From: Verrucomicrobiota bacterium
GTDB lineage: Bacteria; Verrucomicrobiota; Verrucomicrobiia; Limisphaerales; SXQI01
NCBI GenBank assembly: GCA_033762115.1
Contig: JANRLX010000027.1
Span: 21,129-85,128 of the forward strand
Length of the DNA: 64,000 bases
Direction of reading: 5' to 3'
Below are positions 37,646-61,085 of the stretch, in pieces (position 1 is the first letter of the stretch; every line of letters begins with the position of its first letter). Under the pieces are notes generated by a model. It saw only the letters and a program-made list of their open reading frames with translations. It did no database searches and had not been told where the DNA came from. Made by a program: the position numbers and the translations under genes.

Positions 37646-37662
37646 TTCTCTGCGATCGCTTC

Positions 37663-39726: not shown

Positions 39727-39841
39727 GACGACAAATTACCCGTTCAAATGGAAAAGTCAGGTGAATCCTTTTCTTTGTAACCACGCAGACCGCAACGTTC
39801 GTCTTAGACTCTGTCCTGGAGTAAAAATCGATTACATTTTT

Positions 39842-41176
39842 ATGCGCATACTTATTCCTGCTCTTTGCCTGGTAACCGCATTGGTGGCTGCCCATGCAGC
39901 CAGTCCCTCGGAAAACTCCTGGCCGCAATGGCGTGGACCGCTCGCCACGGGCGTCGCTCCCAAAGGCAAAGTCCCCTCCGAATGGAGTGAAGAGAAGAAT
40001 GTGCAATGGAAATACCAAATTCATGGCTTCGGCTCTTCCACCCCGATTGTCTGGGGCAACCAGGTATTTATTCAGACTGCTGTTCCCACCGGCAAAAAAG
40101 AGGAAAAACCGCAGGCTGAAGAACCGTCAGGCAGGCGCGGACGCGGGGAAGTTCCAACCGAGTACCAGGATTTCGTGATTCTCTCAGTGGACAGGACAAC
40201 CGGTAAACAACTTTGGCAAAAGACTGCCAGGACAGAACTTCCACATGAAGGCCATCATAAGGATCATGGGTTCGCCTCTGCTTCACCTGTAACTGATGGA
40301 GAACACCTCTACGTCTATTTTGGCTCCCGCGGGTTATATTGCTACGATCTTTCCGGAAATCTGAAATGGGAAAAGGACCTGGGTGACATGCGCACCCGGA
40401 ACGGTTTTGGTGAAGGAAGTTCTCCAGCGTTGCACGGCAATACGCTGGTGGTGAATTGGGACCATGAAGGAGAGGATTTTATTGCCGCCCTTGATAAGCG
40501 AACTGGCAAGGAAATCTGGAGAAAGCCTCGTGAGGAGGCAACGACCTGGGTGACTCCTGTAATCTTTGAGCACAGTGGCAAAACCCAGGTGGTAGTCAGC
40601 GCGACCACCAAAATTCGCAGTTACGACCTCAACAATGGAGAAGTCATCTGGGAATGTTCCGGAATGACTGCCAATGTCATTCCCACTCCGGTCATTGGCT
40701 TTGACATGGTTTATGCCTTAAGCGGCTTTCGCGGCAATTCCCTCCTCGCCATTAAGCTGGGCAGAACCGGAGACCTTACAGGCACCGATGCAATCGCCTG
40801 GAGCCACAACAAAAATACTCCTTATGTCCCATCCCCTTTGCTTTACGGCGAAAGACTGTATTTCTTCGGGGGGAACAATGCCATCCTCTCCTGTTTTAAT
40901 GCAAAAACGGGCAAGGTCCTGATTGATGCGGAACGGCTCCCTGGGATTTTTGGTGTGTATGGATCCCCGATTGCTGCGGATGGCAAGGTTTTCCTGGTTG
41001 GGCGGGAGGGCGTCTCTCTCGTCATCAAGGACTCCGATAAATTGGAACTGCTTGCCACCAACAAACTGGACGACAAATTTGATGCCTCGCCTGCAATCAG
41101 CGGCAATCAACTCTTCCTTCGCGGTCATAAATTCCTTTACGCCATTTCAGACACCAAGGAGATGGCTGACAAATAA
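39842..41176 (+). CDS. secreted PQQ-like beta-propeller repeat protein
   Basis: The start was moved to ATG 39842 (MRILIPALCLVTALVAAHA signal). W/G-rich blades repeat through the protein (NWPQWRGP, LYCYDLSGNLKWE, IRSYDLNNGEVIWE). Confidence 0.7.
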   Translation: MRILIPALCLVTALVAAHAASPSENSWPQWRGPLATGVAPKGKVPSEWSEEKNVQWKYQIHGFGSSTPIVWGNQVFIQTAVPTGKKEEKPQAEEPSGRRGRGEVPTEYQDFVILSVDRTTGKQLWQKTARTELPHEGHHKDHGFASASPVTDGEHLYVYFGSRGLYCYDLSGNLKWEKDLGDMRTRNGFGEGSSPALHGNTLVVNWDHEGEDFIAALDKRTGKEIWRKPREEATTWVTPVIFEHSGKTQVVVSATTKIRSYDLNNGEVIWECSGMTANVIPTPVIGFDMVYALSGFRGNSLLAIKLGRTGDLTGTDAIAWSHNKNTPYVPSPLLYGERLYFFGGNNAILSCFNAKTGKVLIDAERLPGIFGVYGSPIAADGKVFLVGREGVSLVIKDSDKLELLATNKLDDKFDASPAISGNQLFLRGHKFLYAISDTKEMADK

Positions 41177-41227
41177 TCACGCTCTACATAAGCTCGAAGG
41201 CGACTGCACCATTCAGCCGCCAACAAA

Positions 41228-42040
41228 GTGCGTGAATTGCTTGCTGCCCTGTTCCAGGAACAGGATTACAAGCATCAGCTAAAAATCCATAGAGGGGAGA
41301 TTTCCTCATTTTGGGGGAGCTCAAGGTGCTCCCCTGTTTTGGCTGAACGCAGAAAATGGATCGACTCCACGCCGGAGCTTAATTCATTTGAATCTCCGGA
41401 GGCAGTTCCCTTGCTGGCTGAAGCAACCGCCCTGCTTCGGCTTCCGGAAGCAATCTCCTCATGCCGTGTGCTGGGGACTTTTTTGGAACCCGATTTTCTG
41501 TTGTTAAAAAAGAATGAATCAGGCGCCTTTCAATTCGTCGGAGGCTCTGTTTGTTTTCCTTCATCATGGAAACCGGAAGAAAAATTCGGCAAACCGCTTG
41601 CAGAAATTCATTCCCCGGTTCCCCACCTGAATGAGGAAATCGGGACGCAGATTCATCTCTTTCTTCAACGGCTCCGCCCTGGCCACTCCTGGGAGCGATA
41701 TAATTGGGGATTAAGCCGTTCCTCCGAACTGAACCAGCATCCAGTTCGCAAGTTGCCTCCTCTTCTGCCAGAAACTGAACCCGGAGACATTTGGGTCCGG
41801 ATTGAGCATCAATCCCTTCTCGCTCTTCCTGTCACGACCGGCATCCTCTTTGGAATTCGCATCGTGAATGTGCCGTTGCTCGATTTGCTGAAAGATTCCC
41901 AAATATCGATGCATTTCGCCCGCATGCTGAGAACGATGCCGGAGGAAATGGCCCGGTATAAGGGCATTTTAGCCATTCGCCCCAATTTATTGAGGCATAT
42001 CGCTTCGCTCCCCCAACTCAGGATTGACGACCCTCATTGA
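41228..42040 (+). CDS. DUF3445-like protein (heme-dependent oxidative N-demethylase alpha-subunit-like family)
   Basis: FVGGSVCFPSSWKPEEKFGKPLAEIHSPVPHLNEE...FLQRLRPGHSWERYNWGLS matches the conserved core of DUF3445 as I remember it. The GTG start is uncertain. Confidence 0.5.
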   Translation: MRELLAALFQEQDYKHQLKIHRGEISSFWGSSRCSPVLAERRKWIDSTPELNSFESPEAVPLLAEATALLRLPEAISSCRVLGTFLEPDFLLLKKNESGAFQFVGGSVCFPSSWKPEEKFGKPLAEIHSPVPHLNEEIGTQIHLFLQRLRPGHSWERYNWGLSRSSELNQHPVRKLPPLLPETEPGDIWVRIEHQSLLALPVTTGILFGIRIVNVPLLDLLKDSQISMHFARMLRTMPEEMARYKGILAIRPNLLRHIASLPQLRIDDPH

Positions 42041-42163
42041 TTTTTGGAGGATTAATCTTCGCGATAGCAATCAGGTCTTCTTCATCCTCATTTTTATTTT
42101 TGGAATTATTCTCACTTCTCTGATCCTTCCACTTGCCCAGATGGCCCGGGCCAAAAATAATTG

Positions 42164-42190
42164 TTAAGTTTTTTTCTCTTCTTCCGATAG
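42164..42190 (+). promoter_or_regulatory. sigma-28 (FliA)-type promoter upstream of flagellin
   Basis: TTAAGTTT-N11-TCCGATAG compared with the enterobacterial consensus TAAAGTTT-N11-GCCGATAA gives 7/8 and 6/8 matches at the exact spacing. It lies about 145 nt upstream of the flagellin ATG. Confidence 0.65.
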
Positions 42191-42277
42191 CAGACTTGTC
42201 GCAGAGTGCGACAGGAGCGCAGGCTGCCATTACAAGTGCCTGCACGGTTTGGTGGACACCGCAATCAAAGCGCCATC

Positions 42278-42295
42278 CACAGCAAGGACGCTGTG
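42278..42295 (+). promoter_or_regulatory. hairpin presenting GGA in its loop (candidate CsrA site) in the flagellin leader
   Basis: The CACAGC-AAGGAC-GCTGTG stem-loop was read directly. A second GGA-rich element, GGAAGGAG (42326-42333), is the Shine-Dalgarno sequence. Confidence 0.45.
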
Positions 42296-42335
42296 ATCCA
42301 ACAAAGGCCCATTCGGGCGACTCATGGAAGGAGTT

Positions 42336-43139
42336 ATGGTAATCAATACAAACATTGCAGCACAGAATGGAGCACGTTTGCTCTCAGAATCCAACACAAT
42401 GCTGGGCAAGTCTCTTGCCCGACTTTCCTCAGGATCGAAAATTGTTTCGCCTGAAGATGATGCAGCTGGGTTGGCGGTCTCATTAAGGTTCGACGCACAA
42501 GTGCGGCGAATCAATGCGGCAGACGCAAACGTGGGAAATGCAGTCTCACTGAACCAAACGCAGGACGGGTTCCTGAAAAAGGTCGGCAAAGCGCTTGACC
42601 GGATGAGTGAGCTCTCCATTCTCTCGCAGGATGTGACAAAAACGGACGACGATCGCGCGCTATATAATGCTGAGTTTGCCACTCTCGGCGCGTACATCGA
42701 CGACATTGCCACGAAGGATTTCAACGGAGTGGCTTTGTTCGATGGGACAAGCCTGGATGTCACCACAGATGGTGACGGCGCTCTGTTCACAATGAGCGGA
42801 GTGGATTTGACCGCAGCAGCATATACTGATGCTTCTTCGTCCACAGTGGATTCGGTGGCGAATGCAGTCACGGCGTTGCAAAACGTCAAGGCTGCTATCG
42901 AACAGGTTGCGACTGATCGCGCGACAATTGGCGCGAACATTTCACGACTGAATTCCACGAGCGAACAACTCGGTGTTCTGTCCGACAATTTGACTGCCGC
43001 AAGCAGCCGAATCAAGGATGTGGATGTGGCTGAAGAAAGCACGAACTTTGCAAAGTTCAACATCCTCGTCCAGGCAGGCACAGCGATGCTCGCCCAGGCC
43101 AACAGCACACCGCAATCGGTGCTGAGATTGATTCAGTAA
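42336..43139 (+). CDS. fliC: flagellin (short form, D0/D1 only)
   Basis: The start was moved to ATG 42336, after GGAAGGAG. The N-terminus is MVINTNIAAQNGARLL...LSSGSKIVSPEDDAAGLAVS. The C-terminus is IGANISRLNST...SRIKDVDVAEESTNFAKFNILVQAGTAMLAQANSTPQSVLRLIQ. Confidence 0.95.
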   Translation: MVINTNIAAQNGARLLSESNTMLGKSLARLSSGSKIVSPEDDAAGLAVSLRFDAQVRRINAADANVGNAVSLNQTQDGFLKKVGKALDRMSELSILSQDVTKTDDDRALYNAEFATLGAYIDDIATKDFNGVALFDGTSLDVTTDGDGALFTMSGVDLTAAAYTDASSSTVDSVANAVTALQNVKAAIEQVATDRATIGANISRLNSTSEQLGVLSDNLTAASSRIKDVDVAEESTNFAKFNILVQAGTAMLAQANSTPQSVLRLIQ

Positions 43140-43157
43140 TTTTACTGATCTGACACT

Positions 43158-43196
43158 CCCGGAAGGTCACCCCCTTCCGGGCTCTTTTTTCTTTTT
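43158..43196 (+). terminator. rho-independent terminator after flagellin
   Basis: CCCGGAAGG-TCACCC-CCTTCCGGG followed by CTCTTTTTTCTTTTT. Confidence 0.85.
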
Positions 43197-43267
43197 GGCA
43201 TTTCATCCCGCCACCTGAGTAAGGCGACAGGGTTGAAAACTGCAGCAGTCAGGAATATCCTCCCCTC

Positions 43268-43564
43268 ATGTCGCAAACGGCTGAACCGCCAGTCTTGCCG
43301 GAAATCCAGGAGAAAACAATTGAGCAGGTTGATCCGGGATATCTGGTGATTTGCTGGGATGATCCCGTAAACCTCATGGATTATGTGACCCATGTCTTTC
43401 AACAGGTTTTCGGCTGGCCCCGCCAGAAAGCGGAAGAGCACATGCTTCAGGTGCATCATCAGGGAAAAAGTGTCCTCATCCGGGAAAGCATGGAAAAAGC
43501 GGAACATTACGTGCATCAGCTCCAACGGTACGCTTTGCATGCCACCATGGAAAAGGCTTCGTGA
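43268..43564 (+). CDS. clpS: ATP-dependent Clp protease adaptor ClpS
   Basis: 98 aa. VICWDDPVNLMDYVTHVFQQVFGWPRQKAEEHMLQVHHQGKSVL is the ClpS core. Confidence 0.9.
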   Translation: MSQTAEPPVLPEIQEKTIEQVDPGYLVICWDDPVNLMDYVTHVFQQVFGWPRQKAEEHMLQVHHQGKSVLIRESMEKAEHYVHQLQRYALHATMEKAS

Positions 43565-44040
43565 GATTGCTCAAATTTGAAGGGGAAAACTTCGTCTTTC
43601 GATTTGAAAAAATCGACAAGCAGATTCTTTTTTGCCTGCTTAGGCGCTACCCTGCCTGTTCAGCCCCGCTTACCCCCGAAACCATGAAGGAGGGGGAGGT
43701 CATCGGCCCAGACCTCCATCTTTTGGAAGCCTCGCTGGAAGAGCAGCGGGTGGGACACCGCAAACAGGTGGAAGCCATACTCAGTGATGAGGGTCGCTTT
43801 CAGGAAGATGAGCTTGGCTATCGTTTTTACCTTACCGAACCGCAGATCGATTGCCTGTTGCAGATATTAAACAATATCAGTGTGGGAAGTTGGTTGCAGC
43901 TGGGTCGGCCTAATCCTCAGATGGGGAAGGGTTCCCAAATCACTGAGAAAAACATTGAACTTGCCTGGGCCATGGACTCAGCGCGCCTGTTCCAGTCAGA
44001 ATTGTTGAAAGCACTCCGCCAAAAGCAGGAATTCCAATAA
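43561..44040 (+). CDS. hypothetical protein translationally coupled to clpS (possibly DUF2017-like)
   Basis: 159-aa ORF whose GTG start overlaps the clpS stop (GTGA, 43561-43564). The segment LTEPQIDCLLQILNNISVGSWLQLG recalls the conserved 'W..aLNdlRL.LG' region of the actinobacterial ClpS-neighbour family DUF2017. This is from memory and was not searched. Confidence 0.55.
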   Translation: MRLLKFEGENFVFRFEKIDKQILFCLLRRYPACSAPLTPETMKEGEVIGPDLHLLEASLEEQRVGHRKQVEAILSDEGRFQEDELGYRFYLTEPQIDCLLQILNNISVGSWLQLGRPNPQMGKGSQITEKNIELAWAMDSARLFQSELLKALRQKQEFQ

Positions 44041-44107: not shown

Positions 44108-46999
44108 ATGTCCCTGCCCAAAATAATTTTTTTTGGAGCTTTACTGTATCTATCGTGCAATTTACTTGCTGCCGATAAATTGACTCCTTCGCAGCGGGAT
44201 TTTTTTGAGTCCAAAGTTCGTCCCATCCTTGTCGAGTCCTGCTATTCCTGCCACAGCCTTGAAGCAGGCAAGTCGAAGGGGGGCCTGTTGCTGGATAGTC
44301 GCGCCGGTTGGCAAAAAGGCGGAGATTCCGGGCTGGTCATCGTGTCCGGGAAACCGGACGAAAGCCGGCTGATCAAGGCAATCGAGTGGGCCAGTGAAGA
44401 TCTGCAGATGCCCCCGAAGGAAAAGTTGGGTCCTGACAAAATTCAGGTCTTGCGTCAATGGATAGAAGCGGGAGCCCCTGATCCCAGGGTTCAAGCAGCA
44501 GCTTCCCAATCCATCACAGCCAATCATTGGGCATTCAAAAGCGTTCAGGTTCCTGTTCCTCCCAAAGTGAAGGATTTAAAATGGCCGCGCACTCCCATCG
44601 ACCAGTTCATTTTGGCCGAACTCGAACAAAAACGATTAAAACCAGCGCCCCCTGCGGATAAACGAACCCTGCTGCGGCGGGCGACATTTGATCTTACCGG
44701 CCTCCCTCCCACAGCCGCTGAAATCGAAACCTTCCTTGCAGATCAAACACCGGACGCATTTACAAAAGTGGTGGATCGGTTGCTCCAGAGTCCACACTTT
44801 GGAGAACGTTGGGGACGTCACTGGCTGGACCTTGCCCGTTATGCAGATTCAAACGGTCTCGAAGTCAATACTCCTTATCCCAATGCCTGGCGTTATCGTG
44901 ATTACGTCATCAAATCCTTCAATGACGACAAGCCTTATCGCGATTTTATTCGAGAACAACTTGCGGGTGATCTCTTGCCTGTAAAGGACATCGCTGATCA
45001 GCATGAAAAATGGATCGCAACCGGATTCCTCATGTTGGGACCAAAAGCTCTTGGCGAGCCGGACAGAACCAGGCTGATCATGGACGTGGTTGATGAACAG
45101 ATCGATGTCACCACCCGCACTTTTCTTGGCTTAACCGTCAGTTGCGCCCGCTGCCATGATCACAAGTTCGACCCCATTCCGACCAGAGATTATTACGCGC
45201 TCGCCGGAATTTTTCACAGCACCCTGACTCTGGACGATGGAAATCCCCTCGGGGCAGGCGCTGCCCGGGCATGGCAGGAACGTCCCCTTGGCACCTTGGA
45301 ACAAATTCGTCAGCAGGAGGAATACGACCGCGAATTACAACGGTTACAGGCAGAATTGGCCCAACTTCAGCAAATCCAGCAAAACCTCCCCGGTGGAATC
45401 GATTCCTCTCAAATGGCTGGAGTGGTTGTCGATAACTTGAAGGCCGAGGTGACGGGTAATTGGAGGGCCTCCAATTATTCCACAAATTTTGTCGATAAAA
45501 ACTACCTGCATGATGGGGATGAAAAGAGCGCCAAGGGCAAAAAGACTGTCCGTTTTGTTCCTGATCTTCCCAGGGCAGGCGCTTATGAAGTTCGCCTGGC
45601 CTACACACCTCGATTTGACCGAGCCACCAACGTACCTGTGACGATCCATTCTGAAAAAGGGGAAAAAACAATTCGCCTTAACCAAAGGCTTGCCACTGAA
45701 TTTGATAAGGCATTTGTTTATCTTGGGATTTTCGACTTTGCGGCGGGCACCAACGGCTCAGTAACCGTGGGCACTGAAGGCACCAAAGGTTTCGTGGTCG
45801 CTGATGCAGTCCAGTTTTTGCCGCTCGAAAGCCAATCAACAATGACCATGGCCATGCGCTCTGAAGCAACCTTGAAATCGGAAGGCAAAAGCGCATTGAT
45901 CGCCGCCCGGGAACATGCCCAAATGCAGGTCAAAATCACTGACCTTCGAAGCCAGGCGCCTCCACCGCTTCCCGCTGCCATGTCCGTCCAGGAAGGTAAA
46001 GGGCATAACCTCCAGATCCATTTGCGGGGGGACCCTCAGCGACTCGGAGTTGAAGCGCCGCGCGGTTTTATTTCAGTTGTCGAACAATCAGGAGCCCTCA
46101 AACCGGAAACTCAGATCGCCCATACTCAATCCAGCGGCCGCCTGGAACTTGCAGATTGGATCGCCCATCCAGACCATCCATTGACCTCCCGCGTGATGGT
46201 GAATCGGATCTGGTATCACCTGATGGGAAGAGGTTTGGTGGATACCTTGGATAATTTCGGGGCGCTTGCCGAGCCGCCCACGCATCCTGAACTGCTCGAT
46301 TTTCTCGCCCGGAGATTTTCAGAACGGCAATGGTCAATCAAAAAGATAATCCGGGAAATCATGCTTTCCAGCGTTTATCAGATGGGATCAGAATTTAACC
46401 CCGCGGCTTACCAGAAAGATCCGGAGAATCGTTACTACTGGCGCAAACCCCAGAAGCACCTTGAGGCGGAGGCATTGCGCGACTCCATATTATTTATCAC
46501 TGGTGAATTGGACATTACCCAGGGCGGTGCTCCCTTGCCGGGAAATCTGCCCCCGGTCATTCAAACCGACGCCTTGGCTGCCACTGACAACCTGCATCGA
46601 AGAAGTGTTTATCTTCCCATCATTCGGAACGGAGCCCCTGAGATGCTGCAAACATTTGATTTTGCTGATCCTCACGCCGTTGTTGCCCGGCGCCATGCCA
46701 CCAGCACCGCCATGCAGGCCCTTTTCCTGATGAACAGCCCTTTTATCAACGAACGTGCAAAAGCCTGGGCCACACGCCTGCTCCAGGCTTCCAGCGAAGA
46801 CACCTCCCGAATCAGGACGGCCTTCACACAAGCCTTTGGCCGCTTGCCCGCGCCCCGTGAGGAAAAACTGACTCTCAATTTCCTCAATCAATTCCAGGCT
46901 TCATTGATCTCCTTCCCCGAAGCAGAACGCCATCAACGGGCTTGGGCGGCTTTCTGTCATTCGTTGCTGACCACGGCAGAATTTCGTTTTGTGAATTAA
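44108..46999 (+). CDS. PSCyt1 (planctomycete cytochrome c) + DUF1549 + inserted beta-sandwich + DUF1553 protein
   Basis: Signal peptide present. CYSCH is encoded at 44240-44254. The DUF1549 core is DRLLQSPHFGERWGRHWLDLARYADSNG ... CARCHDHKFDP. The DUF1553-type C-terminus is RRSVYLPIIRN...FDFADP...TTAEFRFVN. Confidence 0.85.
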   Translation: MSLPKIIFFGALLYLSCNLLAADKLTPSQRDFFESKVRPILVESCYSCHSLEAGKSKGGLLLDSRAGWQKGGDSGLVIVSGKPDESRLIKAIEWASEDLQMPPKEKLGPDKIQVLRQWIEAGAPDPRVQAAASQSITANHWAFKSVQVPVPPKVKDLKWPRTPIDQFILAELEQKRLKPAPPADKRTLLRRATFDLTGLPPTAAEIETFLADQTPDAFTKVVDRLLQSPHFGERWGRHWLDLARYADSNGLEVNTPYPNAWRYRDYVIKSFNDDKPYRDFIREQLAGDLLPVKDIADQHEKWIATGFLMLGPKALGEPDRTRLIMDVVDEQIDVTTRTFLGLTVSCARCHDHKFDPIPTRDYYALAGIFHSTLTLDDGNPLGAGAARAWQERPLGTLEQIRQQEEYDRELQRLQAELAQLQQIQQNLPGGIDSSQMAGVVVDNLKAEVTGNWRASNYSTNFVDKNYLHDGDEKSAKGKKTVRFVPDLPRAGAYEVRLAYTPRFDRATNVPVTIHSEKGEKTIRLNQRLATEFDKAFVYLGIFDFAAGTNGSVTVGTEGTKGFVVADAVQFLPLESQSTMTMAMRSEATLKSEGKSALIAAREHAQMQVKITDLRSQAPPPLPAAMSVQEGKGHNLQIHLRGDPQRLGVEAPRGFISVVEQSGALKPETQIAHTQSSGRLELADWIAHPDHPLTSRVMVNRIWYHLMGRGLVDTLDNFGALAEPPTHPELLDFLARRFSERQWSIKKIIREIMLSSVYQMGSEFNPAAYQKDPENRYYWRKPQKHLEAEALRDSILFITGELDITQGGAPLPGNLPPVIQTDALAATDNLHRRSVYLPIIRNGAPEMLQTFDFADPHAVVARRHATSTAMQALFLMNSPFINERAKAWATRLLQASSEDTSRIRTAFTQAFGRLPAPREEKLTLNFLNQFQASLISFPEAERHQRAWAAFCHSLLTTAEFRFVN

Positions 47000-47011
47000 C
47001 CAACGTTTCTC

Positions 47012-48415
47012 ATGAAAATCCATCATCCATTGTCACGGCGGGAGATGCTTAAGAAGTGTAGTTCCGGTTTCGGTTATCTCGCCCTTGCCACCCTCGCAAT
47101 GGAGAATGCCGCGCCTCTTTCAATGGCCAATCCTTTGGCCCCCAAACCGGGTCATTTCCCAGGTCGCGCAAAACGGGTCATTTTCCTCTTCATGCACGGC
47201 GGTCCTTCACAGGTGGATACATTCGATTACAAGCCGCTCCTTGCCCGCGACCAGGAGAAGACGCTGCCTGAAAGCATGCGGAAAGGAGTGGCAGACCCCA
47301 GCGCCAGGCTGCTGCCTTCTCCTTTTGAGTTCAAAAAACAGGGCCACAGTGGAATCGAAATTTCCGAAATTTTTCCGGAAATTGGAAAATGCGCGGATGA
47401 TCTTTGCGTTATCCGCAGCATGCACACCAATGGTCAGGACCATGGCCAGGCAGTCCTCAAGTTGCATACCGGTTCCGAAACGCAGGTTCGTCCCAGTGTT
47501 GGTGCCTGGATCACTTACGGCCTCGGTTCCGAGAACCAAAATCTGCCGGGATTTGTCACGATCAGCCCCAGCCCCCTGACCGGTGGCCCGCAAAATTATG
47601 GGTCAGCGTTTCTTCCTGCAGTTTACCAGGGCACAGCAATTGGACGCTCCGGAACCTCCTTGACCCAGGCCCAGATCCGCCATATCCAGGCCAACCTCCC
47701 TCCTGACTTGCAGCGGCAGCAACTCGATTTTGTCCAAAGCCTCAATCGTCTCCAACTCGAACAGGCTCGCACCAACGCCGCCCTGGAAGGGGTCATTGAA
47801 TCGTATGAACTGGCCTTTCGCATGCAAACTGAGGCGCCTGAGTTGACTGATCTTTCACGCGAATCTCAAGCGACACGCGATTTATACGGAGTTGACCAGG
47901 CACCCACCGATGATTTTGCGCGGCAATGTCTTCTGGCTCGTCGCTTTGCTGAAAAGGGAGTGCGATTCATCCAGGTGAGTCATAGTTTCAAATGGGACCA
48001 GCACGCCAACCTGCGCCGCGAGCATGAACGCAACGCCCGCGAGGTGGATAAACCGATTGCCGGGTTGCTTCAGGATTTGAAAGCCCGCGATCTGCTCAAG
48101 GACACTTTGGTCATTTGGGGGGGAGAGTTCGGCCGCACCCCTACCGCCCAGGGCTCACGGGATGGGCGTGATCACAACCCGCACGGTTTCACCATTTGGC
48201 TGGCGGGCGGCGGTGTTAAACCCGGCATGGTCCATGGCTCAACTGATGAGTACGGATATCAAGCGGTGGAAAACAAGGTTCACACTCACGACCTTCATGC
48301 CACAATCCTCCACCTTCTCGGGATCAATCATGAGAAACTCACCTACCGTTATGCGGGTAGAGATTACCGTCTGACCGATATCCATGGAAACATCGTGAAA
48401 GCGATTTTGGCCTGA
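47012..48415 (+). CDS. Tat-signal DUF1501 protein (alkaline-phosphatase/sulfatase-like fold)
   Basis: SRREMLKK twin-arginine N-terminus. Core motifs are [20 protein letters not shown] and WGGEFGRTP...GRDHNPHGF. Confidence 0.85.
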
Positions 48416-48500
48416 TTTCAGACCTGTAATCCTTTTAAGTGCTTTGGGAGTGGCACCCATTGTGCTGACAACTGCTGGATCGTCAGTAACTGCACTTGTT

Positions 48501-50921
48501 ATGAGTTCGTTAAAGCAACTCTTCGGAATATCGGTTTTCGCCGTCGCGCTCGCCGTCCACTCTGGCTCCCAGGCTCAACCCCTCCCGGATATCGGAATCA
48601 CCCGGACAAATGGAAATGCTTCCATTCGATTGCCTCTTTACCCTGCGGCAGAACAGTTTCGCGTTTTTAAAAGCCAGAATCTCGAAGGGCCTTATGAAGA
48701 AGTGCTCACAGGGAATATTACCGGGTTTAACTGGCAGGAAATCATCTCCGGCCAAAGCAACGCCTTCTTCAAAGTCGAAATCAACACTCTCTCCTCAAAC
48801 GATCTGCTCTCTGCCACAGTTCTCAATCGGCTGGCTTATGGCCCCACTCCTGATGAATTGGAAAGAGTCAGGGCGATGGGTGCCGAGGCGTATATTGCCG
48901 AGCAACTGGCCCCTGAAAATATCCAGGAAACCTTGGATTTCGATCAACCAGTTACCGCTGCCGAATGGCGTTACGTCACCATCACAGGGACCGCCACCTC
49001 AAGAGATTTTTATATTTACCTGACCCAGCCCGGTGACGTGTACCTCGATGACATGAAACTGGTTGCGGGAATAGTGCCGGAAGTCGGCGCGAATCTTCTT
49101 GTCAATGGCGATTTTGAATCTGCTCTTACCCCTCCCTGGACCGTCTCTGCAAACCATGCTGCCACAGTCATTACATCAGCGCAGGTTCATTCCGGGAGCG
49201 GCGCGCTCCACCTCATTGCAGATGACGGTGGCACATCCAAATCTTCTTCCGTCTGGCAAACCATCAGCAACGTTACCGTCGGCCAGACCTATACTTTAAG
49301 TTACTGGTTCCGTCCCGGCACCAACCTGATCACCAGCCTCACAATCCGCTTCTCCAATGACGGCTTGCGCCATAATCCTGATTCGATTGCGACCAAACTT
49401 GCCAGCGGTCTGGCCGATCTCGATGACCTGCGCGCCTGGCATGTCCTGCGCGCCATCAAATCAAAGCGCCAGTTGCTCGAAATCCTCCTGCAATTTCTTG
49501 AAAACCACTTCGTCACCCAGGCATCAAAATCGAAGGAATATTTTGATGGCATTTACAGTGATGACATTTTGATCGAGGGATTGGCAACAGAGATGGAATA
49601 TCGGGAAAACAAAAACTGGCGCGCCGCCTTGTTGCGGCCCGATTGCAGCTTCCATGACCTTTTGAAAATCAGCGCGGAAAGCCCCGCCATGATCATTTAC
49701 CTCGATACCGTCGGAAGCAAGGGCAACGGAAAAAATGTCGCCAACGAAAATTACGCTCGCGAATTACTCGAACTCTTCACCTTCGGGGTTGATAACGGTT
49801 ATCAGCAGAATGATATCACTGTCCTGTCTCGTGCCTGGACTGGCTGGTCTGTAAATATTGTGGACAGTAACCAGTTCCACAATCCATTCGCTCCCCGCAG
49901 CGTTACAGTCATTCCCGGTTCACCCACAAACACCATGCAGTACCTCCAGGGAATCTGGGCCTTCAACTACAAAACCGGCAATCACAATACGAATTCCAAA
50001 ACCATCTTTCCAGGCGCAACCGTCCCGGCTCGTTTTGGTCCCCCCTACGCCGGGCGCAATTACCAACTGGTCCTTCCCCAGCGAAATGGCACCAATGGCA
50101 TCAAGGACGGGTACGAAGTCCTCGCTCATCTTGCCGACCAGCCCTTCACCCAGGAATACATCAGCGTCAAACTTTGCCAACTCTTTGTGCATGAACATTT
50201 CGAGCACGGCTACGATTTCACTGACCCAAACCTTTCTGAAGAAGGCAAACTCGTTCGCGCCTGCATGGCAACCTGGGAAAGCACCACTCCGAAAGGGCAA
50301 ATTCGTCCAATACTTCAAACGATTTTCAATTCGGAGATGTTCCGCGGCCTGGGAAGTGCCTCCCATAAGGTCAAAACCCCCCTCGAATTCACCGTCAGCG
50401 CGGTTCGCGCCCTTTGGTCGCCAACTCCGTTCCCCACTGCCTACTCCGATGGCTATTCGCACAAGAACCCGCTTGATCTGATGGGAGCCATGAAGCTCTT
50501 TGATCGCGCCGAGCCCGATGGTTACCCGGAATCAGCCCCCGGCTGGATCAGCGCTGGAACATTGGCTGAGCGCGTTCGTTTCGTGCAGGCAATGCTCATT
50601 GCCCCCGGTCAAAGCGGGCGGGGCGATGCCGGGCAGATCACAGCTGACCCTGTCGCTTTATTAAAGCGAAAGTTGGACCCGGCGGATTATAACAATGCGG
50701 GAAAAATCGCTGATTATTTTCTCTCCATTCTCTTTCCTGGTGAAGGCAAGGCAAACCTCAAGCTCTATCACGAGGCTTGCGTCAGTTTCCTTAATACCGG
50801 CGACAATGGCATCGTCAGTTCTCCAATCAGCCTTTTGGCCCACACCAGCATTCCTTACGACACCCGTGTTCGCGGGATGGTGGCCATGTTGATGAGTTCA
50901 CAACGTTTTCAGGAGCAATAA
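48501..50921 (+). CDS. DUF1800 protein with N-terminal beta-sandwich and an inserted CBM-like jelly-roll
   Basis: The start was moved to ATG 48501 (MSSLKQLFGISVFAVALAVHSGSQA signal). The DUF1800 core is LNRLAYGPTPDELE ... ENHFVTQ ... NENYARELLELFTFGV. Confidence 0.8.
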   Translation: MSSLKQLFGISVFAVALAVHSGSQAQPLPDIGITRTNGNASIRLPLYPAAEQFRVFKSQNLEGPYEEVLTGNITGFNWQEIISGQSNAFFKVEINTLSSNDLLSATVLNRLAYGPTPDELERVRAMGAEAYIAEQLAPENIQETLDFDQPVTAAEWRYVTITGTATSRDFYIYLTQPGDVYLDDMKLVAGIVPEVGANLLVNGDFESALTPPWTVSANHAATVITSAQVHSGSGALHLIADDGGTSKSSSVWQTISNVTVGQTYTLSYWFRPGTNLITSLTIRFSNDGLRHNPDSIATKLASGLADLDDLRAWHVLRAIKSKRQLLEILLQFLENHFVTQASKSKEYFDGIYSDDILIEGLATEMEYRENKNWRAALLRPDCSFHDLLKISAESPAMIIYLDTVGSKGNGKNVANENYARELLELFTFGVDNGYQQNDITVLSRAWTGWSVNIVDSNQFHNPFAPRSVTVIPGSPTNTMQYLQGIWAFNYKTGNHNTNSKTIFPGATVPARFGPPYAGRNYQLVLPQRNGTNGIKDGYEVLAHLADQPFTQEYISVKLCQLFVHEHFEHGYDFTDPNLSEEGKLVRACMATWESTTPKGQIRPILQTIFNSEMFRGLGSASHKVKTPLEFTVSAVRALWSPTPFPTAYSDGYSHKNPLDLMGAMKLFDRAEPDGYPESAPGWISAGTLAERVRFVQAMLIAPGQSGRGDAGQITADPVALLKRKLDPADYNNAGKIADYFLSILFPGEGKANLKLYHEACVSFLNTGDNGIVSSPISLLAHTSIPYDTRVRGMVAMLMSSQRFQEQ

Positions 50922-50922
50922 A

Positions 50923-52518
50923 ATGAAACACTTCCACTTGGTTACACGTCGTCAGTTTCTGGATCGAGCCATGAAAACCGGCGCCGCTGCGGCGCTGGCC
51001 AGCCTCACCAACATCCCCCTGGTCATGAAACAGGCGCTCGCGGCTGAGAGCAGCCTCGGCACCAACGGCAAAAAGCTGCTCTTTATTTTCCTGCGCGGGG
51101 CCAATGACGGGCTGAATTCTGTAATCCCAATTGGCGATGATGGCTACAGCCTGGAGCATCGCCCGGACATCCTGATCCCTCGCGATCCCGGAACTGATTA
51201 TACCATCCTGGGTGGCTGCGATTATCCTTCTGTTGCAACACCTGATGCTCCAACGTTCGGTTACGCTTCCGCCATCCGCCTCGGCAATGGATTTTCTGCT
51301 CTCCATCCCTCCTTGAAATTTCTGGCCCCTGTTTACAACGCAGGCGATCTGGCCATGATCCATCGTGTCGGCTATCCCAAACAAAGCCGTTCCCATTTCG
51401 ATTCACAGGTTTATTGGGAAACCGGGCATCCCAACAATCCATCCAAGGAAGGGATTTTTTACCGCACCATCATGGAATCCGGCCTCGCCCACACGCTTCC
51501 GCTCACAGGCGTTTCCATCCAATCCTCCCTGCCAGTGATTTTGCGCGGATCGGACGCGGCCATGACCAACCTGAAAGATCCCAATCGATACGATCTGCTC
51601 GGCATTCCCAACAATACCAACGGCAACAGCAAAGCGGATTTTCATCTGCGCAATGCCAATGAATTTCCTTTCCCTTCAAGACTCAATCGGGACCTCCTTA
51701 AGCTGCAATACAATAATCTCTCCCAGACTCTCTCGATTTTCGATGCGATGGATTTCTCTGAAACGGGCAACATTTTCACCGACGATGTGAACACTGATGG
51801 AGATACTGTTCCCTACCATCTTTTTCCAACGACCAACAGCAAGAACGGCGGATACCAGGCACACAACAACGATCCATTGAAATACGTCGTGAATCCCAAC
51901 TCCTACAGCTTTTTCCGCGACCTCAAAGCCGCTGCAATGGTTCTCAACAACACGGATGCCATGATTGCCGGCACCCGTCTCGATGGGTTCGACACCCACA
52001 GCAACCAGGGCGGTGTCACAGGTGCCCACGCCAACTTGCAACGTTCCATCGGCTGGGCCATCTACGCCCTCAGAAAATATTTCACCAAATACGCGCAGCG
52101 TGTGAACTGGAACAACCTGGTGGTGGTCACTCTCTCCGAATTCGGACGCACCACCATTCAGAATTCTGATGCAGGAACAGATCACGCGGAAGCCAATGTC
52201 ATGTTTGTCGCTGGCGGGGGAGTCAAAGGCTACAACAAGGGCAATCCATCCGGCGTTTTTGCCGGTCACCCGAACGATTCCATCCCCTGGGTTACCGGAA
52301 GAACCGGTTCCATGTTCGGCGTCAGCACTCGTTATCTAAAACGTTCTGTGGATTACCGCTCCGTTCTCGGAAAATTGATTCGCGATCATTTGGGCGCTTC
52401 GCAAGAGCAGTTGAACCGGATCATCCCCGGCTATGCCACCGCCAGCAAACGATTGTTAAGCGGTGGTGTTTCAGGCGAAGACGGCACCCAGATCACGGGC
52501 GAACTGCCAATCGTCTAA
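50923..52518 (+). CDS. Tat-signal DUF1501 protein
   Basis: TRRQFLDRAMKTGAAAALA Tat signal. Core motifs are LLFIFLRGANDGLN and SEFGRT...GTDHAEANVMFVAGGGVKG. An AGGAG SD lies inside the end of the DUF1800 gene, 1 nt from its stop. Confidence 0.85.
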   Translation: MKHFHLVTRRQFLDRAMKTGAAAALASLTNIPLVMKQALAAESSLGTNGKKLLFIFLRGANDGLNSVIPIGDDGYSLEHRPDILIPRDPGTDYTILGGCDYPSVATPDAPTFGYASAIRLGNGFSALHPSLKFLAPVYNAGDLAMIHRVGYPKQSRSHFDSQVYWETGHPNNPSKEGIFYRTIMESGLAHTLPLTGVSIQSSLPVILRGSDAAMTNLKDPNRYDLLGIPNNTNGNSKADFHLRNANEFPFPSRLNRDLLKLQYNNLSQTLSIFDAMDFSETGNIFTDDVNTDGDTVPYHLFPTTNSKNGGYQAHNNDPLKYVVNPNSYSFFRDLKAAAMVLNNTDAMIAGTRLDGFDTHSNQGGVTGAHANLQRSIGWAIYALRKYFTKYAQRVNWNNLVVVTLSEFGRTTIQNSDAGTDHAEANVMFVAGGGVKGYNKGNPSGVFAGHPNDSIPWVTGRTGSMFGVSTRYLKRSVDYRSVLGKLIRDHLGASQEQLNRIIPGYATASKRLLSGGVSGEDGTQITGELPIV

Positions 52519-52534
52519 CCAATTGCCGATGCCA

Positions 52535-55500
52535 TTATTTCGCTTCGCTTTTCAACGAGGAGAGATAAGCGATCAGGTCAGCAAATTCTTCGATGGAAAG
52601 CGCGGCATGCAATCCCTCCGGCATCAGCGAGAAATTGCTGTTCCTGCGCGCCTTGATTGCTGACCTCTGCAATTTGTGTTCACGGCCTGAGCTGTCCCGC
52701 AATGTGACCAGTCCATTGTTCTCCCCTTTGATCACCCCACTGAACTCCTCGTCATCGTTCATTTCCAATGTGATCTGCTGGTAACCTTCACGGACAGTTT
52801 TGCTCGGATAGATAATGGCTTCCGCCAATGCGCGTCGATCAAACTGCGTGCCCGCTCCGCTCAAGTCCGGGCCCACATCACTTCCTTCCCCTCCAACTCG
52901 ATGGCACGCAGCGCAATTGACTCCATTCGCCTCAAAGAACAACGATTTTCCCCGCACGACATCTCCAGGAACTTTAATTGCGGCCTCGAGATACTCCTCC
53001 GCGCTCGGTTGCCTGATCTCCCGGGTGAAAAGCGGACCGGCTTCCGCTGTTTTGTTCCCCGCGTAAATATGGCGTAATTCAGTGATTGCCTGTGGCGAAA
53101 GCGTGGCAGCTCTCGCTTCAGCCGCCTTCAACATCTTCCCGCTGATATTTCGGATTGCCAGGTGCGCGGCATTCCGCTCGGCAGGATTTTTCGAAGAAAT
53201 ACCATCCAGGAGCGCATCACTGGCGCGGGCATCCGGCGTCCTGGCCAGCCCGGCAAAAGCGTCGTTGCGTAACGCTCCATCCGAATAAGCTTTCAATAAG
53301 GCGGGAATGGCCTTGGGGCTTTTCAGGTCACTCAAGCTTTTCACCGCTGCGCGTCTTACTTCCAATTCCCCGTCCTCCAGGGCTTTCTCCAGCAGTGGCA
53401 CGCTGACATCTCCTTGAAGGCGCGAAAGCGTGCTGAGCGCTGCGGCACGAACGGAGCCCTTTGGATGATTTGCCAGCGGTTCAATCGCAGTCGATCCCTC
53501 CTTCACTGAAAGTTTTCCCACTCCCTTGATTGCTGCCACCAGAGATTCGGCATTTTTTTCAGGTCCGGTTAAAAATGCGGATAACGCCTGCGCCGCCTGC
53601 TCACCCCCAATATCTGCGGCTGCCTCGATCGCAGCCATGGTCAATTCAGCATTCGAGGGACGCGATAATTCCATCGTCACCATTCCGAGCGCTTCGCTGT
53701 CCTTCATTGTCCCCAGCGCTCTCAGGATGGTGGCCTTGACTTGTGGGTTGCTTTCCTTCGGATAAATCTCACGCAGGGCAGGGGAGTACCCTCTATCCCC
53801 CGCAACAGCCAATCCTCGAATGCACGCCAGTCGCAACTCCGAATTGGTTTCCGTGAGCCCCGCTTGCAATGTGGCCAGGACCAGCTCTGTGCCGCTCCAT
53901 TTCACAGTCTTTGCAGGTGCCGGTTGCAACGCCGGATGATAAGCCCACCATTCACCTTTCCATTCCGGTTTCTGATGATGTAACGTGGCGATCAACTCCA
54001 CCGCTCGTTGCCGCATTGCCAGGTTTTTTCCTTTGTCCCGGAATACTTTCACCAGGGCTGCCAGTAAATCGCCATCATACGTCTCCCGCACCGCAAAACT
54101 CGTTCCTTCAATGATCCGATCATTGTTGCTTTCCCATCCCTGCAAAATCATTTCCCATGCGGATGGCGACTTTCTGCCTATGCGATTCAACGCAGTAAAC
54201 GCAGCATATCGCGCAAATAAATCCTCCTCCTTCAACGCCGCCACAAGCTCCGGAACTGCCTCAGCTCCACCGATTCTTCCCAATGCGGTTGCTGCCTGGA
54301 ACCGCACCGATGCCTCCTCATCCTTTAGCCGTAACTCCAGCGCACCAACAGCCTCGGTAACCTGTTTCAATCCCAATTGGCGGATCGCCTGCCGCCGAAT
54401 CATCGAATCGCTCTCACGGGTGACTGCAATCATCACAGGCTTGACAGAATCATCCCCCATTTCATGCAACGCCCAGATCGCATGGCTTCTCGCCAATGCA
54501 GGGGCTGACGCATTTTGAACAACTCCAATCAGCAGTTTCCTGGTTTCCATGCCTTTCGATCTGGATAACTCCCGTTGCGCAGCTAATCGAACATTTCGTG
54601 AGGGATGAAACAACCCCTTCACAAAATCTTCCGCCTTCCCTTCAGGCGCTTTCCCCATTGCAGCTGGCAAATACCATTCTGGCTTTGGGCTGCTGTGGTC
54701 TTTTCCTTTCCAGGTCAGCTTTAATAATCGCCCCACGCTGACCTTTGCCTTTTCATCCCGATGCTGCCAGTCACAAATGTAAATGCTTTTTCCATCTGCG
54801 CTCTGGGTGATACCCACGGGCCGAAAATCTCCCGGCGGATTCGGAAACAAATCTTCCTTCAACACCGCCTGATAACTGCCTCCTTCCCGTTTGACCTGCA
54901 CCCGCATCACTTGCCGCTTGCCAAAATCAGACAAAAAAACATTCCCTTCATACTCCGGCGGCAACGCATCCTCATTGTTTGCCAAAGCTCCGCAAGCCGC
55001 CCCCGCTCCATAATCCTCCATCATCCACAAGGTGTACGGACGGCGCGGAATAAAATCGTGCGGATAACCGTAAAATCCCGCTTCCACCATGTGAGTAAAA
55101 CGTCCCATCCATTCATGCTCATCGGTGTTGTCATAAGTGAATTGCTCATCCTCCGCGTTCAGCGCCACATCAAGGATATTTCTCACCCCATGCGACATGA
55201 CTTCAAGTCGGGTTCCATCCGGTCGAATCCGGAAGATGCCGCCCGTCGAAAGTGTCGCCCTTGAGCCATCCCTTCCCTCTGCCCCGTACAACCCCTTGTC
55301 CCCGCATGCCGCATAAAAAAAGCCATCCATCCCCAGCTTGAAATTCGCAGGAATATGGTCGTTCCAGTTCAACGCGGAAGGTTCAGGCAATGTTTGCTCG
55401 ATCAGTTCACGACGGTTTCGGCCAATTCCATTGTCATCCTCAAAAACGCTGAACTTCGGGTTGTGCAGCACGTACAATTTTCCTTCCAGGTATTGCAACC

Positions 55501-55792
55501 CAAAGACCGCATAAAGCTTTTCTGCAAACACCGTTATCCTGCCATCCGGGTGGAGGCACAGGATTCTCCCTTCAGCCGCGCTTGCTTCAGGAAGGCTGAT
55601 ATCCATCGGATCTTCCGCCACGAAAACCCGTCCATCCGGTGCGCACGCCACCACCGACGGATGACGAAGTGTTGGCGCTTCGGCAACCACTTCAACCTGC
55701 CATCCTGCAACCGGTTCCGGGAGAGCGGCAGCTTCTCCCTTGCATGCGATGATCAGGGCTGAAAACAGGAACTGAACAACTGAAAATTTCAT
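52535..55792 (-). CDS. PVC-type dehydrogenase-domain + HEAT + C-terminal c-type heme-binding protein (paralogue 3)
   Basis: 1085 aa with a signal peptide. CAACH is encoded at 52901-52915 on the minus strand, followed by GPDLSG and a SLMPEG tail. Confidence 0.85.
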   Translation of the reverse strand: MKFSVVQFLFSALIIACKGEAAALPEPVAGWQVEVVAEAPTLRHPSVVACAPDGRVFVAEDPMDISLPEASAAEGRILCLHPDGRITVFAEKLYAVFGLQYLEGKLYVLHNPKFSVFEDDNGIGRNRRELIEQTLPEPSALNWNDHIPANFKLGMDGFFYAACGDKGLYGAEGRDGSRATLSTGGIFRIRPDGTRLEVMSHGVRNILDVALNAEDEQFTYDNTDEHEWMGRFTHMVEAGFYGYPHDFIPRRPYTLWMMEDYGAGAACGALANNEDALPPEYEGNVFLSDFGKRQVMRVQVKREGGSYQAVLKEDLFPNPPGDFRPVGITQSADGKSIYICDWQHRDEKAKVSVGRLLKLTWKGKDHSSPKPEWYLPAAMGKAPEGKAEDFVKGLFHPSRNVRLAAQRELSRSKGMETRKLLIGVVQNASAPALARSHAIWALHEMGDDSVKPVMIAVTRESDSMIRRQAIRQLGLKQVTEAVGALELRLKDEEASVRFQAATALGRIGGAEAVPELVAALKEEDLFARYAAFTALNRIGRKSPSAWEMILQGWESNNDRIIEGTSFAVRETYDGDLLAALVKVFRDKGKNLAMRQRAVELIATLHHQKPEWKGEWWAYHPALQPAPAKTVKWSGTELVLATLQAGLTETNSELRLACIRGLAVAGDRGYSPALREIYPKESNPQVKATILRALGTMKDSEALGMVTMELSRPSNAELTMAAIEAAADIGGEQAAQALSAFLTGPEKNAESLVAAIKGVGKLSVKEGSTAIEPLANHPKGSVRAAALSTLSRLQGDVSVPLLEKALEDGELEVRRAAVKSLSDLKSPKAIPALLKAYSDGALRNDAFAGLARTPDARASDALLDGISSKNPAERNAAHLAIRNISGKMLKAAEARAATLSPQAITELRHIYAGNKTAEAGPLFTREIRQPSAEEYLEAAIKVPGDVVRGKSLFFEANGVNCAACHRVGGEGSDVGPDLSGAGTQFDRRALAEAIIYPSKTVREGYQQITLEMNDDEEFSGVIKGENNGLVTLRDSSGREHKLQRSAIKARRNSNFSLMPEGLHAALSIEEFADLIAYLSSLKSEAK

Positions 55793-57222: not shown

Positions 57223-57996
57223 TTATCCTGCCTGCTGCCTTCTTTTGTTTACCGGTTTTCCTTCCAATTCCTTCACTCGCGTCACCAGCTTGTCCAGCAC
57301 CGCCAGTTGGCAGATTCGCGGCGCGATTGCAAAGCTACCCGCCGGACGCTCCACCGTTTGCGTGGGCAGCAGGATATCCACTGCCCGCCCCAGTTCGCTC
57401 CCGGGTTCGTTGGTCAATCCAATCGTTTTCACACCCGCCCGTTTCGCTTCCATGACAGCTTGCAACGTAAATTGTGTTTCTCCTGAGTGGGAAATCGCCA
57501 GCAACACCAGCCCGTTCACAGGAGGAGTGAATGCAAACCCTGCCATTTGCGCGTCCGCGATCGGAAGCGCCTGTTTTCGCATCGTGAAAAGAATATCCGT
57601 CAGCACCAGCGCAATTCCGTGTGATGCTCCCACTCCCACCAGGGCCACTCGCGAAGCATTTTTCAATGCCTCCGCTGCCTCCTCCATACCCGCTGCTGCG
57701 GCTGCAAGGCTTGCGGTCATGTCGCTTCCATAATGCCCCTCCCCATTAGCAACCTGCTTGAACTCGCCGCCGGTCAACTCCCGCAGCACATGATACTTCA
57801 AGTCCTGAAATCCATCGAACCCCGCTGCGCGACACGCCCGAACCACTGTCGCGTCACTCGTTTGGCATCCTTGTGCCACTTCTCGCAGGCTCTTTTCCGC
57901 CACCACTCCCATGTCCCGCAGCAATCGTCGCGTCACTTCAGCCTCGCTTGGGCGCATCTCCGCAAGACGTGACTGCAATGTTTGGCTGACGGACAT
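57223..57996 (-). CDS. MurR/RpiR-family transcriptional regulator (HTH + SIS sugar-phosphate-binding domain)
   Basis: The N-terminal HTH_6-like region is SLREVAQGCQTSDATVVRACRAAGFDGFQDLK. The SIS domain is RVALVGVGASHGIA...LLAISHSGET. Confidence 0.8.
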   Translation of the reverse strand: MSVSQTLQSRLAEMRPSEAEVTRRLLRDMGVVAEKSLREVAQGCQTSDATVVRACRAAGFDGFQDLKYHVLRELTGGEFKQVANGEGHYGSDMTASLAAAAAGMEEAAEALKNASRVALVGVGASHGIALVLTDILFTMRKQALPIADAQMAGFAFTPPVNGLVLLAISHSGETQFTLQAVMEAKRAGVKTIGLTNEPGSELGRAVDILLPTQTVERPAGSFAIAPRICQLAVLDKLVTRVKELEGKPVNKRRQQAG

Positions 57997-58127
57997 GCGA
58001 CAAAACTATATAAATATGTTGCAGGCACAACAAAAAATTGATTAAGTCGCTTTCCAATGACGCGCGCTTCCATTTTTCAATCCGGCAGGTTCGTTTCTGC
58101 CCTTCACGTCATTTCCCAATCACCACA

Positions 58128-60121: not shown

Positions 60122-60126
60122 TTATT

Positions 60127-61071: not shown

Positions 61072-61085
61072 TCCCTTCTACGGAG

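Follow-up and report, generated by a model that had tools for sequence, protein, structure and literature searches.

Does a row of four genes on one strand encode a single composite system, or two separate systems that have come to lie side by side? This question is raised by positions 44108-52518 of a stretch of DNA from a Verrucomicrobiota bacterium (contig JANRLX010000027.1 of assembly GCA_033762115.1), which was analyzed over its full length of 64,000 nucleotides (nt) and is referred to here as the window. The first two genes encode a large exported protein with PSCyt1, DUF1549/PSCyt2, and DUF1553/PSD1 domains (g1) and a DUF1501 protein (g2). The second two encode an exported DUF1800 protein (g3) and a divergent DUF1501 protein (g4). 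An initial annotation, made from the letters of the DNA, had joined the four genes into one block and offered it as an undescribed two-subunit enzyme system of the periplasm. The explanation that we favor, with some reserve, is that the block is made up of two independent, widespread two-gene modules, which lie head-to-tail in this genome and do not form a conserved four-gene system, and that their DUF1501 proteins are metallo-esterase-like.

The evidence for two independent modules comes from the surroundings of homologous genes, which were surveyed from both ends of the block. The survey from the g1 side covered 82 loci, of which 54 had room downstream and 30 had at least 6.2 kb downstream. 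The survey from the g4 side covered 13 loci (L001-L009 and L092-L095); 10 of these, all from close relatives, had 3 kb or more of sequence ahead of the DUF1800 gene. In 51 of the 54 loci with room, the g1-type gene was directly followed by a co-directional g2-type DUF1501 gene (median apparent gap, 53 nt), and one of the three exceptions has a DUF1501 gene directly upstream. The genes flanking pair 1 vary at every locus. The core distances among g1-type proteins were correlated with the distances among the neighboring DUF1501 proteins (r = 0.75 over 30 loci; Mantel test, 0/2000 permutations) and, therefore, pair 1 diversifies as a unit. This correlation would fit partner specificity, but shared phylogeny could also produce it. 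For pair 2, each of the 13 loci had DUF1800 directly 5' of its g4 homologue. Its contexts are varied, with PEPCK, complex I, SH3-domain, YgjP-like, or sulfatase genes as neighbors.

No PSCyt/DUF1553 or g2-type gene was detected upstream of DUF1800 in any of the 10 close relatives. At L009, a paralogue locus that is more distantly related, a g2-like gene occurs 5.5 kb upstream, with opposite-strand open reading frames (ORFs) in the interval. Downstream of pair 1, a DUF1800-like match was seen at 1 of 30 loci; it was weak (115 bits), 4.4 kb past the DUF1501 gene, and non-adjacent. Judging from these gene neighborhoods, each pair is a robust two-gene unit and the juxtaposition found here is lineage-specific. 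The initial annotation had recognized in each half a conserved large partner followed by a DUF1501 protein, and this is borne out by the survey. Its reading of all four genes as one block fails, since the tandem is absent from relatives. The nearest homologues bear the names of Verrucomicrobiota (Limisphaerales, Pedosphaera, and "Verrucomicrobiae bacterium"), and exact-sequence look-ups of the g4 product yielded no record. The closest homologues are only 57% (g1), 60% (g3), and 72% (g4) identical, and thus the collections hold no close relative.

At the locus itself, the genes are tightly spaced. The intergenic gaps are 12 nt between g1 and g2, 85 nt between g2 and g3, and 1 nt between g3 and g4. 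A Shine-Dalgarno-like AGGAG is separated by 7 nt from the ATG of g4 (50923) and lies ahead of the g3 stop codon at 50919-50921. The four ORFs, the three gaps, and the internal AGGAG were recovered as the initial annotation had given them, the motifs CYSCH, SRREML, TRRQFL, GRDH, and GTDH can all be read in the translations, and Pfam returned each of the domains it had named (PSCyt1, DUF1549, DUF1553, DUF1501, and DUF1800). Two starts come into question for g3, an ATG at 48501 (806 amino acids, aa) and a TTG at 48444 (825 aa). The ATG is favored by the database gene call (P0121), which gives 806 aa, and by the near invariance of M1 in homologues. The spacer between the two pairs contains no stable or terminator-like hairpin (minimum free energy z-score +0.83). 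A promoter and terminator scan produced no sites above shuffled sequence, and no significant promoter match was found in the spacer. All four genes may be co-transcribed through their juxtaposition in this lineage. No paralogues of g1-g4 were found elsewhere in the window.

The two halves were also compared with each other by profile alignment, and on this basis the DUF1501 subunits are homologous while the large partners are without detectable homology. The g4 and g2 DUF1501 families are related over their C-terminal ~130 columns only (hhalign probability 94.7%, E 5.6e-8), where the motifs W/F-D-x-H, (G/S)EFGRT, and G(R/T)DH align. Homology of the partners had been suspected from their similar C-terminal ends, of the form ...S/T-x-E/Q-F/R-x-x-x. 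DUF1800 and DUF1549/DUF1553 were rejected as distant homologues, with an hhalign probability of 0.8% for close profiles and 0.3% for diverse profiles. The beta-sandwich inserts of g1 and g3 were considered as one and the same module and this, too, was rejected. They gave the top hhalign match between the two partner profiles, yet it was non-significant (E 0.07, probability 0.8%), and the inserts belong to different Pfam families.

The domain order of g1 is PSCyt1, DUF1549/PSCyt2, a Golvesin_C-like insert, and DUF1553/PSD1 (Pfam; Table 1). These domains follow a Sec-type signal at approximately aa 1-22, which has a strongly hydrophobic h-region (12-mer hydropathy 2.32). In the PSCyt1 domain, C45, C48, H49, and M101 are invariant in 42 close homologues and at least 90% conserved in 48 more diverse relatives; M101 is part of a conserved Met-Pro-Pro. 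The initial annotation named CYSCH alone and passed over a second motif of this type, CARCH at aa 346-350. In the 48 diverse relatives, C346, R348, C349, H350, H352, and K353 are invariant. Because the second CxxCH is invariant, g1 may be a di-heme protein or the bearer of a Cys/His metal site. A Gln/Glu/Leu-rich stretch, EQIRQQEEYDRELQRLQAELAQLQQIQQ, is found between DUF1549 and the insert (aa ~395-430, ~45290-45400) and looks like a coiled-coil linker.

Residues 438-571 of g1, which span the insert, are homologous to residues 906-1037 of the Paenibacillus xanthan lyase PXL (PDB 6F2P; E 5.7e-19). The C-terminal accessory beta-sandwich module is all that the two proteins have in common: PXL has PL8 lyase domains, whereas Pfam finds none in g1. 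The names "xanthan lyase" and "xly" carried by some g1 homologues are an over-annotation, since only the accessory module matches. The Golvesin_C insert is present in only 12 of the 48 PSCyt/PSD1 relatives and is, therefore, a variable cassette. The g1 architecture including the insert forms an orthologous group in Verrucomicrobiota and Planctomycetota, the latter represented by Gimesia (L011, 45% identity).

The partner in pair 2, g3, was matched by Pfam to DUF1800 with 257.5 bits (cut-off 26.1) and, in its insert, to CBM_4_9 with 30.8 bits (cut-off 25.9). A regex check found no CxxCH in this protein. Its AlphaFold2 (AF2) model has a predicted local distance difference test (pLDDT) score of 84.4 and a predicted TM-score (pTM) of 0.81. 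When this model was compared with the PDB using Foldseek, there was no match at E <= 0.001; a local match was obtained for the Fn3-like part alone and none of significance for the core, so the DUF1800 core has no recognizable solved relative. The number of CBM-like inserts differs among DUF1800 orthologues, with no copy in L003, L004, and L008, one in the window and in L005-L007, and two in L001 and L002. This module is also seen outside the DUF1800 orthologues, in unrelated giant proteins of 1,000-3,460 aa. The family is large, as the g3 DUF1800 query retrieved 8,256 cluster representatives (50% identity) at E <= 1e-3.

The two DUF1501 proteins differ in how fully they match their family. While g2 is a full-length DUF1501 (PF07394) with 509.7 bits against a gathering threshold of 27, the match of g4 is partial, at 67.1 bits over aa 351-436 (cut-off 27). 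The h-regions of g2 and g4 lie behind the twin arginines and are milder in hydrophobicity than those of g1 and g3, which fits twin-arginine translocation (Tat) for the former and Sec for the latter. Accordingly placed signals, Sec-type on the partner and Tat-type on DUF1501, and beta-sandwich inserts in both partners had been part of the initial annotation, and both observations hold. Across 41 neighbor-encoded homologues of g2, the invariant residues are R9, R10, H144, W328, D329, H331, E372-R375, G385, R386, and H388. The g4 family is strongly conserved (mean column identity 69%) and has R9, R10, D62, S155-F159, D357-H359, E406-T410, and T419-H421 as invariants. The AF2 model of g4 reached a pLDDT of 74.9 and a pTM of 0.80.

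Table 1. Genes, domains, and motifs of the four-gene block, in order along the window
Feature	Positions	Strand	Size or place in protein	Remarks
g1 ORF	44108-46999	+	963 aa	large exported partner of pair 1
PSCyt1, mono-heme cytochrome c-like domain	44240-44422	+	g1 aa 45-105	Pfam 55.9 bits
CYSCH	44240-44254	+	g1 aa 45-49	
DUF1549/PSCyt2	44594-45223	+	g1 aa 163-372	Pfam 286.7 bits
Second CxxCH, C346-A-R-C349-H350-D-H352-K353	45143-45166	+	inside DUF1549/PSCyt2	regex
Beta-sandwich insert, Golvesin_C-type	45422-45817	+	g1 aa 439-570	Pfam 81.9 bits, E 5.8e-23
DUF1553/PSD1	46136-46882	+	g1 aa 677-925	Pfam 288.3 bits; in 48/48 relatives
g2 ORF	47012-48415	+	467 aa	DUF1501 protein of pair 1
SRREML twin-arginine motif	47033-47050	+	g2 aa 8-13	
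GGEFGR			g2 aa 370-375	
GRDH	48164-48175	+	g2 aa 385-388	
g2-g3 spacer	48416-48500	+	85 nt	between both pairs
g3 ORF	48501-50921	+	806 aa from ATG	exported DUF1800 protein of pair 2
Signal peptide, Sec-type			g3 N-terminus	strongly hydrophobic h-region; AF2 model and hydropathy
Fn3-like beta domain	48594-48788	+	g3 aa 32-96	
CBM_4_9-like jelly-roll insert	48969-49352	+	g3 aa 157-284	
DUF1800 core, mainly helical			g3 aa 296-806	AF2 secondary-structure map
AGGAG, Shine-Dalgarno-like, for g4	50911-50915	+	within g3 3' end	
g4 ORF	50923-52518	+	531 aa	divergent DUF1501 protein of pair 2
TRRQFL twin-arginine motif	50944-50961	+	g4 aa 8-13	
FDTH			g4 aa 356-359	
SEFGRT			g4 aa 405-410	
GTDH	52174-52185	+	g4 aa 418-421	

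The likely chemistry of DUF1501 was approached through distant similarities. Sequence searches of the PDB with g1-g4 and with the g2 and g4 family profiles found no significant relative except for the g1 insert, and an NCBIfam scan found no match above the cut-offs. Below threshold, g2 matched Pfam Sulfatase (PF00884) with 19.6 bits (E 6e-4; gathering threshold 25 bits); g4 had no match to this family. The 41-sequence g2-type profile gave sub-threshold PDB matches with E values of 0.06-1.5, and 13 of 15 of these were S1 sulfatases or LtaS, aligned in the same register over a helix, a beta-strand, and a metal-ligand segment. The g4 model reached at best E 0.5 in a Foldseek search of the PDB, with TM values of 0.1-0.2 and nothing at E <= 0.001. 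Most of its top 50 weak matches were sulfatases, alkaline phosphatases, and nucleotide pyrophosphatases/phosphodiesterases (NPPs).

The GRDH and GTDH motifs, which the initial annotation had assigned to the alkaline-phosphatase/sulfatase-like fold, are present in the two proteins. Their role as the canonical motif of that fold is doubtful, as in the weak alignments to sulfatases the DHG motif falls on E372-F373-G of GGEFGR in g2 and not on GRDH. Membership of DUF1501 in the S1 sulfatases was rejected, given that the formylglycine motif is absent and the Pfam Sulfatase match is below threshold. The motif C/S-x-P-x-R does not occur in g4, nor at the expected N-terminal position in g2, and the only loose match in g2 (SQATR, aa 285) has Ala in place of Pro and is far from that position. 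The weak likeness to S1 sulfatases and the wider alkaline-phosphatase superfamily (alkaline phosphatases, NPPs, LtaS/EptA) is found at the helix, beta-strand, and metal-ligand segment. Like these enzymes, the DUF1501 proteins are predicted to be exported and are probably metal-dependent. Unlike the S1 sulfatases, DUF1501 proteins use Tat export and have an obligatory large gene neighbor, which sulfatases lack. We infer that DUF1501 may be a non-canonical metalloenzyme, similar to the alkaline-phosphatase superfamily, with a Ser/Thr nucleophile and not formylglycine.

The PSCyt1, PSCyt2, and PSD1 domains are reportedly derived from work by Studholme and colleagues in 2004. A module of DUF1501 and PSCyt/PSD1 proteins, with Tat and signal peptides and with optional carbohydrate-binding domains named Laminin_G_3 or F5_F8_type_C, was described by Kamneva et al. 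(2012; PMC3542564), who suggested a part in electron transport and regarded the Tat-exported partner as a probable enzyme. The g1-g2 pair shares with this module the domain order, the DUF1501 gene immediately downstream, the signal peptide, and the twin-arginine motif, and g1 likewise has a binding-type insert between PSCyt2 and PSD1. However, the insert of g1 is of the Golvesin_C or xanthan-lyase C-terminal type instead of Laminin_G_3 or F5_F8_type_C, and the DUF1800 pair that comes immediately downstream here does not belong to the described module. A DUF1800-DUF1501 operon pair (OperonDB), co-transferred with bacterial chitin synthases, was reported by Gonçalves et al. (2016; PMC5122149). 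The g3-g4 pair has the same order, tight spacing, and twin-arginine motif, and pairs of this type are mobile and maintained as a unit. It differs from that pair in three respects: in this Verrucomicrobiota subfamily, the DUF1800 protein contains a CBM_4_9-like insert and, at its N-terminus, an Fn3-like domain, the DUF1501 protein is longer (531 aa) and divergent, with its Pfam match confined to aa 351-436, and the chitin-synthase neighbor is absent here. In view of these two publications, the word "undescribed" in the initial annotation was too strong. Its statement that neither pair has an experimentally assigned function agrees with our full-text literature searches, in which none was found for DUF1501, DUF1800, DUF1549, DUF1553, or PSCyt. 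Both modules belong to known, uncharacterized kinds, and the block itself is ordinary.

Each of the two modules could work as follows. The DUF1501 protein would fold and take up metal in the cytoplasm and would then be exported by Tat. In the periplasm, it would act as a metallo-esterase or transferase of the alkaline-phosphatase-superfamily type on an anionic (phospho- or sulfo-) ester, with Ser/Thr and not formylglycine as the nucleophile. The Sec-exported large partner is predicted to dock to DUF1501, and its beta-sandwich module would recognize the substrate. In module 1 only, the partner would carry one or two c-type hemes, for electron transfer or redox sensing. Both modules would probably act on different substrates. 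As a reading of each pair, a periplasmic two-subunit enzyme is a reasonable hypothesis.

Several observations weigh against this explanation. The short gaps, the shared strand, and the lack of a terminator leave room for co-expression and cooperation of the four genes. None of the similarities to the alkaline-phosphatase superfamily reaches significance (Foldseek E >= 0.5; PDB profile E >= 0.06), and hhalign comparisons of the DUF1501 families with one sulfatase and one "Metalloenzyme" protein (locus L095) gave probabilities of 3% or less. In the AF2 model of g4, the region of aa 155-256 is of low quality. In the weak alignments, the metal-binding Asp-His of sulfatases is replaced by Glu-Phe in g2 and, therefore, the metal site, if there is one, is non-canonical. 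Also, the density of PSCyt genes in freshwater Verrucomicrobia was found to be nearly opposite to that of glycoside hydrolases (He et al. 2017), a pattern that disfavors a role in classical polysaccharide breakdown.

Other explanations were weighed against that of two independent modules. One that we regard as unlikely is that PSCyt/DUF1553-DUF1501 and DUF1800-DUF1501 are convergent versions of one periplasmic enzyme architecture that has not been described before. A Tat-exported, non-canonical catalytic subunit of the alkaline-phosphatase superfamily would be combined with an obligatory, large, non-homologous, Sec-exported specificity subunit with exchangeable binding modules, which in one version has c-type heme, and the two versions would here be co-expressed from a single transcript and work on related substrates.

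It is also improbable that each pair constitutes a redox enzyme and not a hydrolase. The heme or hemes of PSCyt would exchange electrons with a cofactor-bearing DUF1501, which would explain its export by Tat, and the DUF1800 pair would be a heme-less variant with another electron partner. Cofactor-containing redox enzymes typically leave the cytoplasm by Tat. The two invariant CxxCH motifs and the conserved Met-Pro-Pro of g1 are consistent with this idea, as are the apparent replacement of the canonical sulfatase Asp-His in DUF1501 and the electron transport proposed by Kamneva et al. (2012). However, Pfam and NCBIfam revealed no Cys-rich, flavin, molybdopterin, or Fe-S signature in DUF1501, and its weak similarities are all toward hydrolases and transferases of the alkaline-phosphatase superfamily. 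In addition, the homologous g4-type DUF1501 is paired with a partner entirely lacking CxxCH, so heme is not intrinsic to DUF1501 function.

Another explanation, which we doubt, is that the proteins are non-enzymatic components of the envelope, such as scaffold, uptake, or binding factors, with DUF1501 as a degenerate pseudo-enzyme. This could account for the absence of a significant match to any solved enzyme, the apparent substitution of the canonical metal-ligand pair, and the very high copy number of the pairs in genomes of the Planctomycetes-Verrucomicrobia-Chlamydiae group (in R. baltica, DUF1549 and DUF1553 each occur 41 times). It is at odds with the many invariant D, H, E, R, and K residues, which are active-site-like and are retained in both DUF1501 families even between diverged paralogues, and with the strict conservation of the Tat signal in DUF1501. 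Finally, a single operon for one composite periplasmic system, in which both partner/enzyme pairs cooperate on one polymer, is very unlikely: the co-directional genes with gaps of 12, 85, and 1 nt, the spacer without a terminator-like hairpin, and the carbohydrate-binding-like beta-sandwich inserts in both partners would suit it, but the tandem is found in 0/10 relatives from the g4 side and only as one weak, non-adjacent case in 30 from the g1 side, the inserts are from different families with no detectable homology, and the pairs in relatives stand alone beside unrelated or divergently transcribed genes and, therefore, each pair should need a promoter to itself.

The surroundings of the block in the window were also examined. 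Just 5' of g1, there is a 159-aa ORF with a GTG start (43561-44040, + strand). It matches no Pfam family, no counterpart was found upstream of g1-type genes in the 82 related loci and, for these reasons, it is possibly spurious. Farther upstream, a strong terminator-like hairpin (43158-43181) follows a flagellin gene (42324-43139). Three paralogous giant proteins with DUF7133, HEAT-repeat, and C-terminal cytochrome c regions are encoded at 14858-18193 (+), 23656-26622 (+), and 52535-55792 (-), and they are 22-30% identical among themselves. The last of these genes adjoins the end of g4 in convergent orientation and is followed by a gene with a 3-keto-disaccharide-hydrolase domain and an RpiR regulator gene. 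Genes for sugar metabolism occupy 57223-62722 downstream and encode an RpiR/SIS regulator, a GFO/IDH/MocA oxidoreductase, an EamA transporter, a homocysteine S-methyltransferase, a protein similar to glucosamine-6-P isomerase/6-phosphogluconolactonase, and a ROK kinase. The GC skew of the window is positive over 1-37 kb and increasingly negative from ~44 kb to the end, independent of gene strand. Its sign changes within ~37000-44000, and the cumulative skew peaks near 36-38 kb. Such a switch could mark the terminus of replication, or else a boundary left by assembly or by rearrangement.

This locus is no more tractable than thousands of others, and the tandem that distinguishes it is not conserved. 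An orthologue of the g1-g2 pair is carried by Gimesia, a genetically tractable genus (the L011 locus, at 45% identity). Few unexplained gene families in Planctomycetota and Verrucomicrobiota are as large as that of DUF1501 with its PSCyt/PSD1 or DUF1800 partners, of which a genome carries dozens of copies. Once the function of one such pair is solved, it would provide annotation for a very large amount of environmental sequence.

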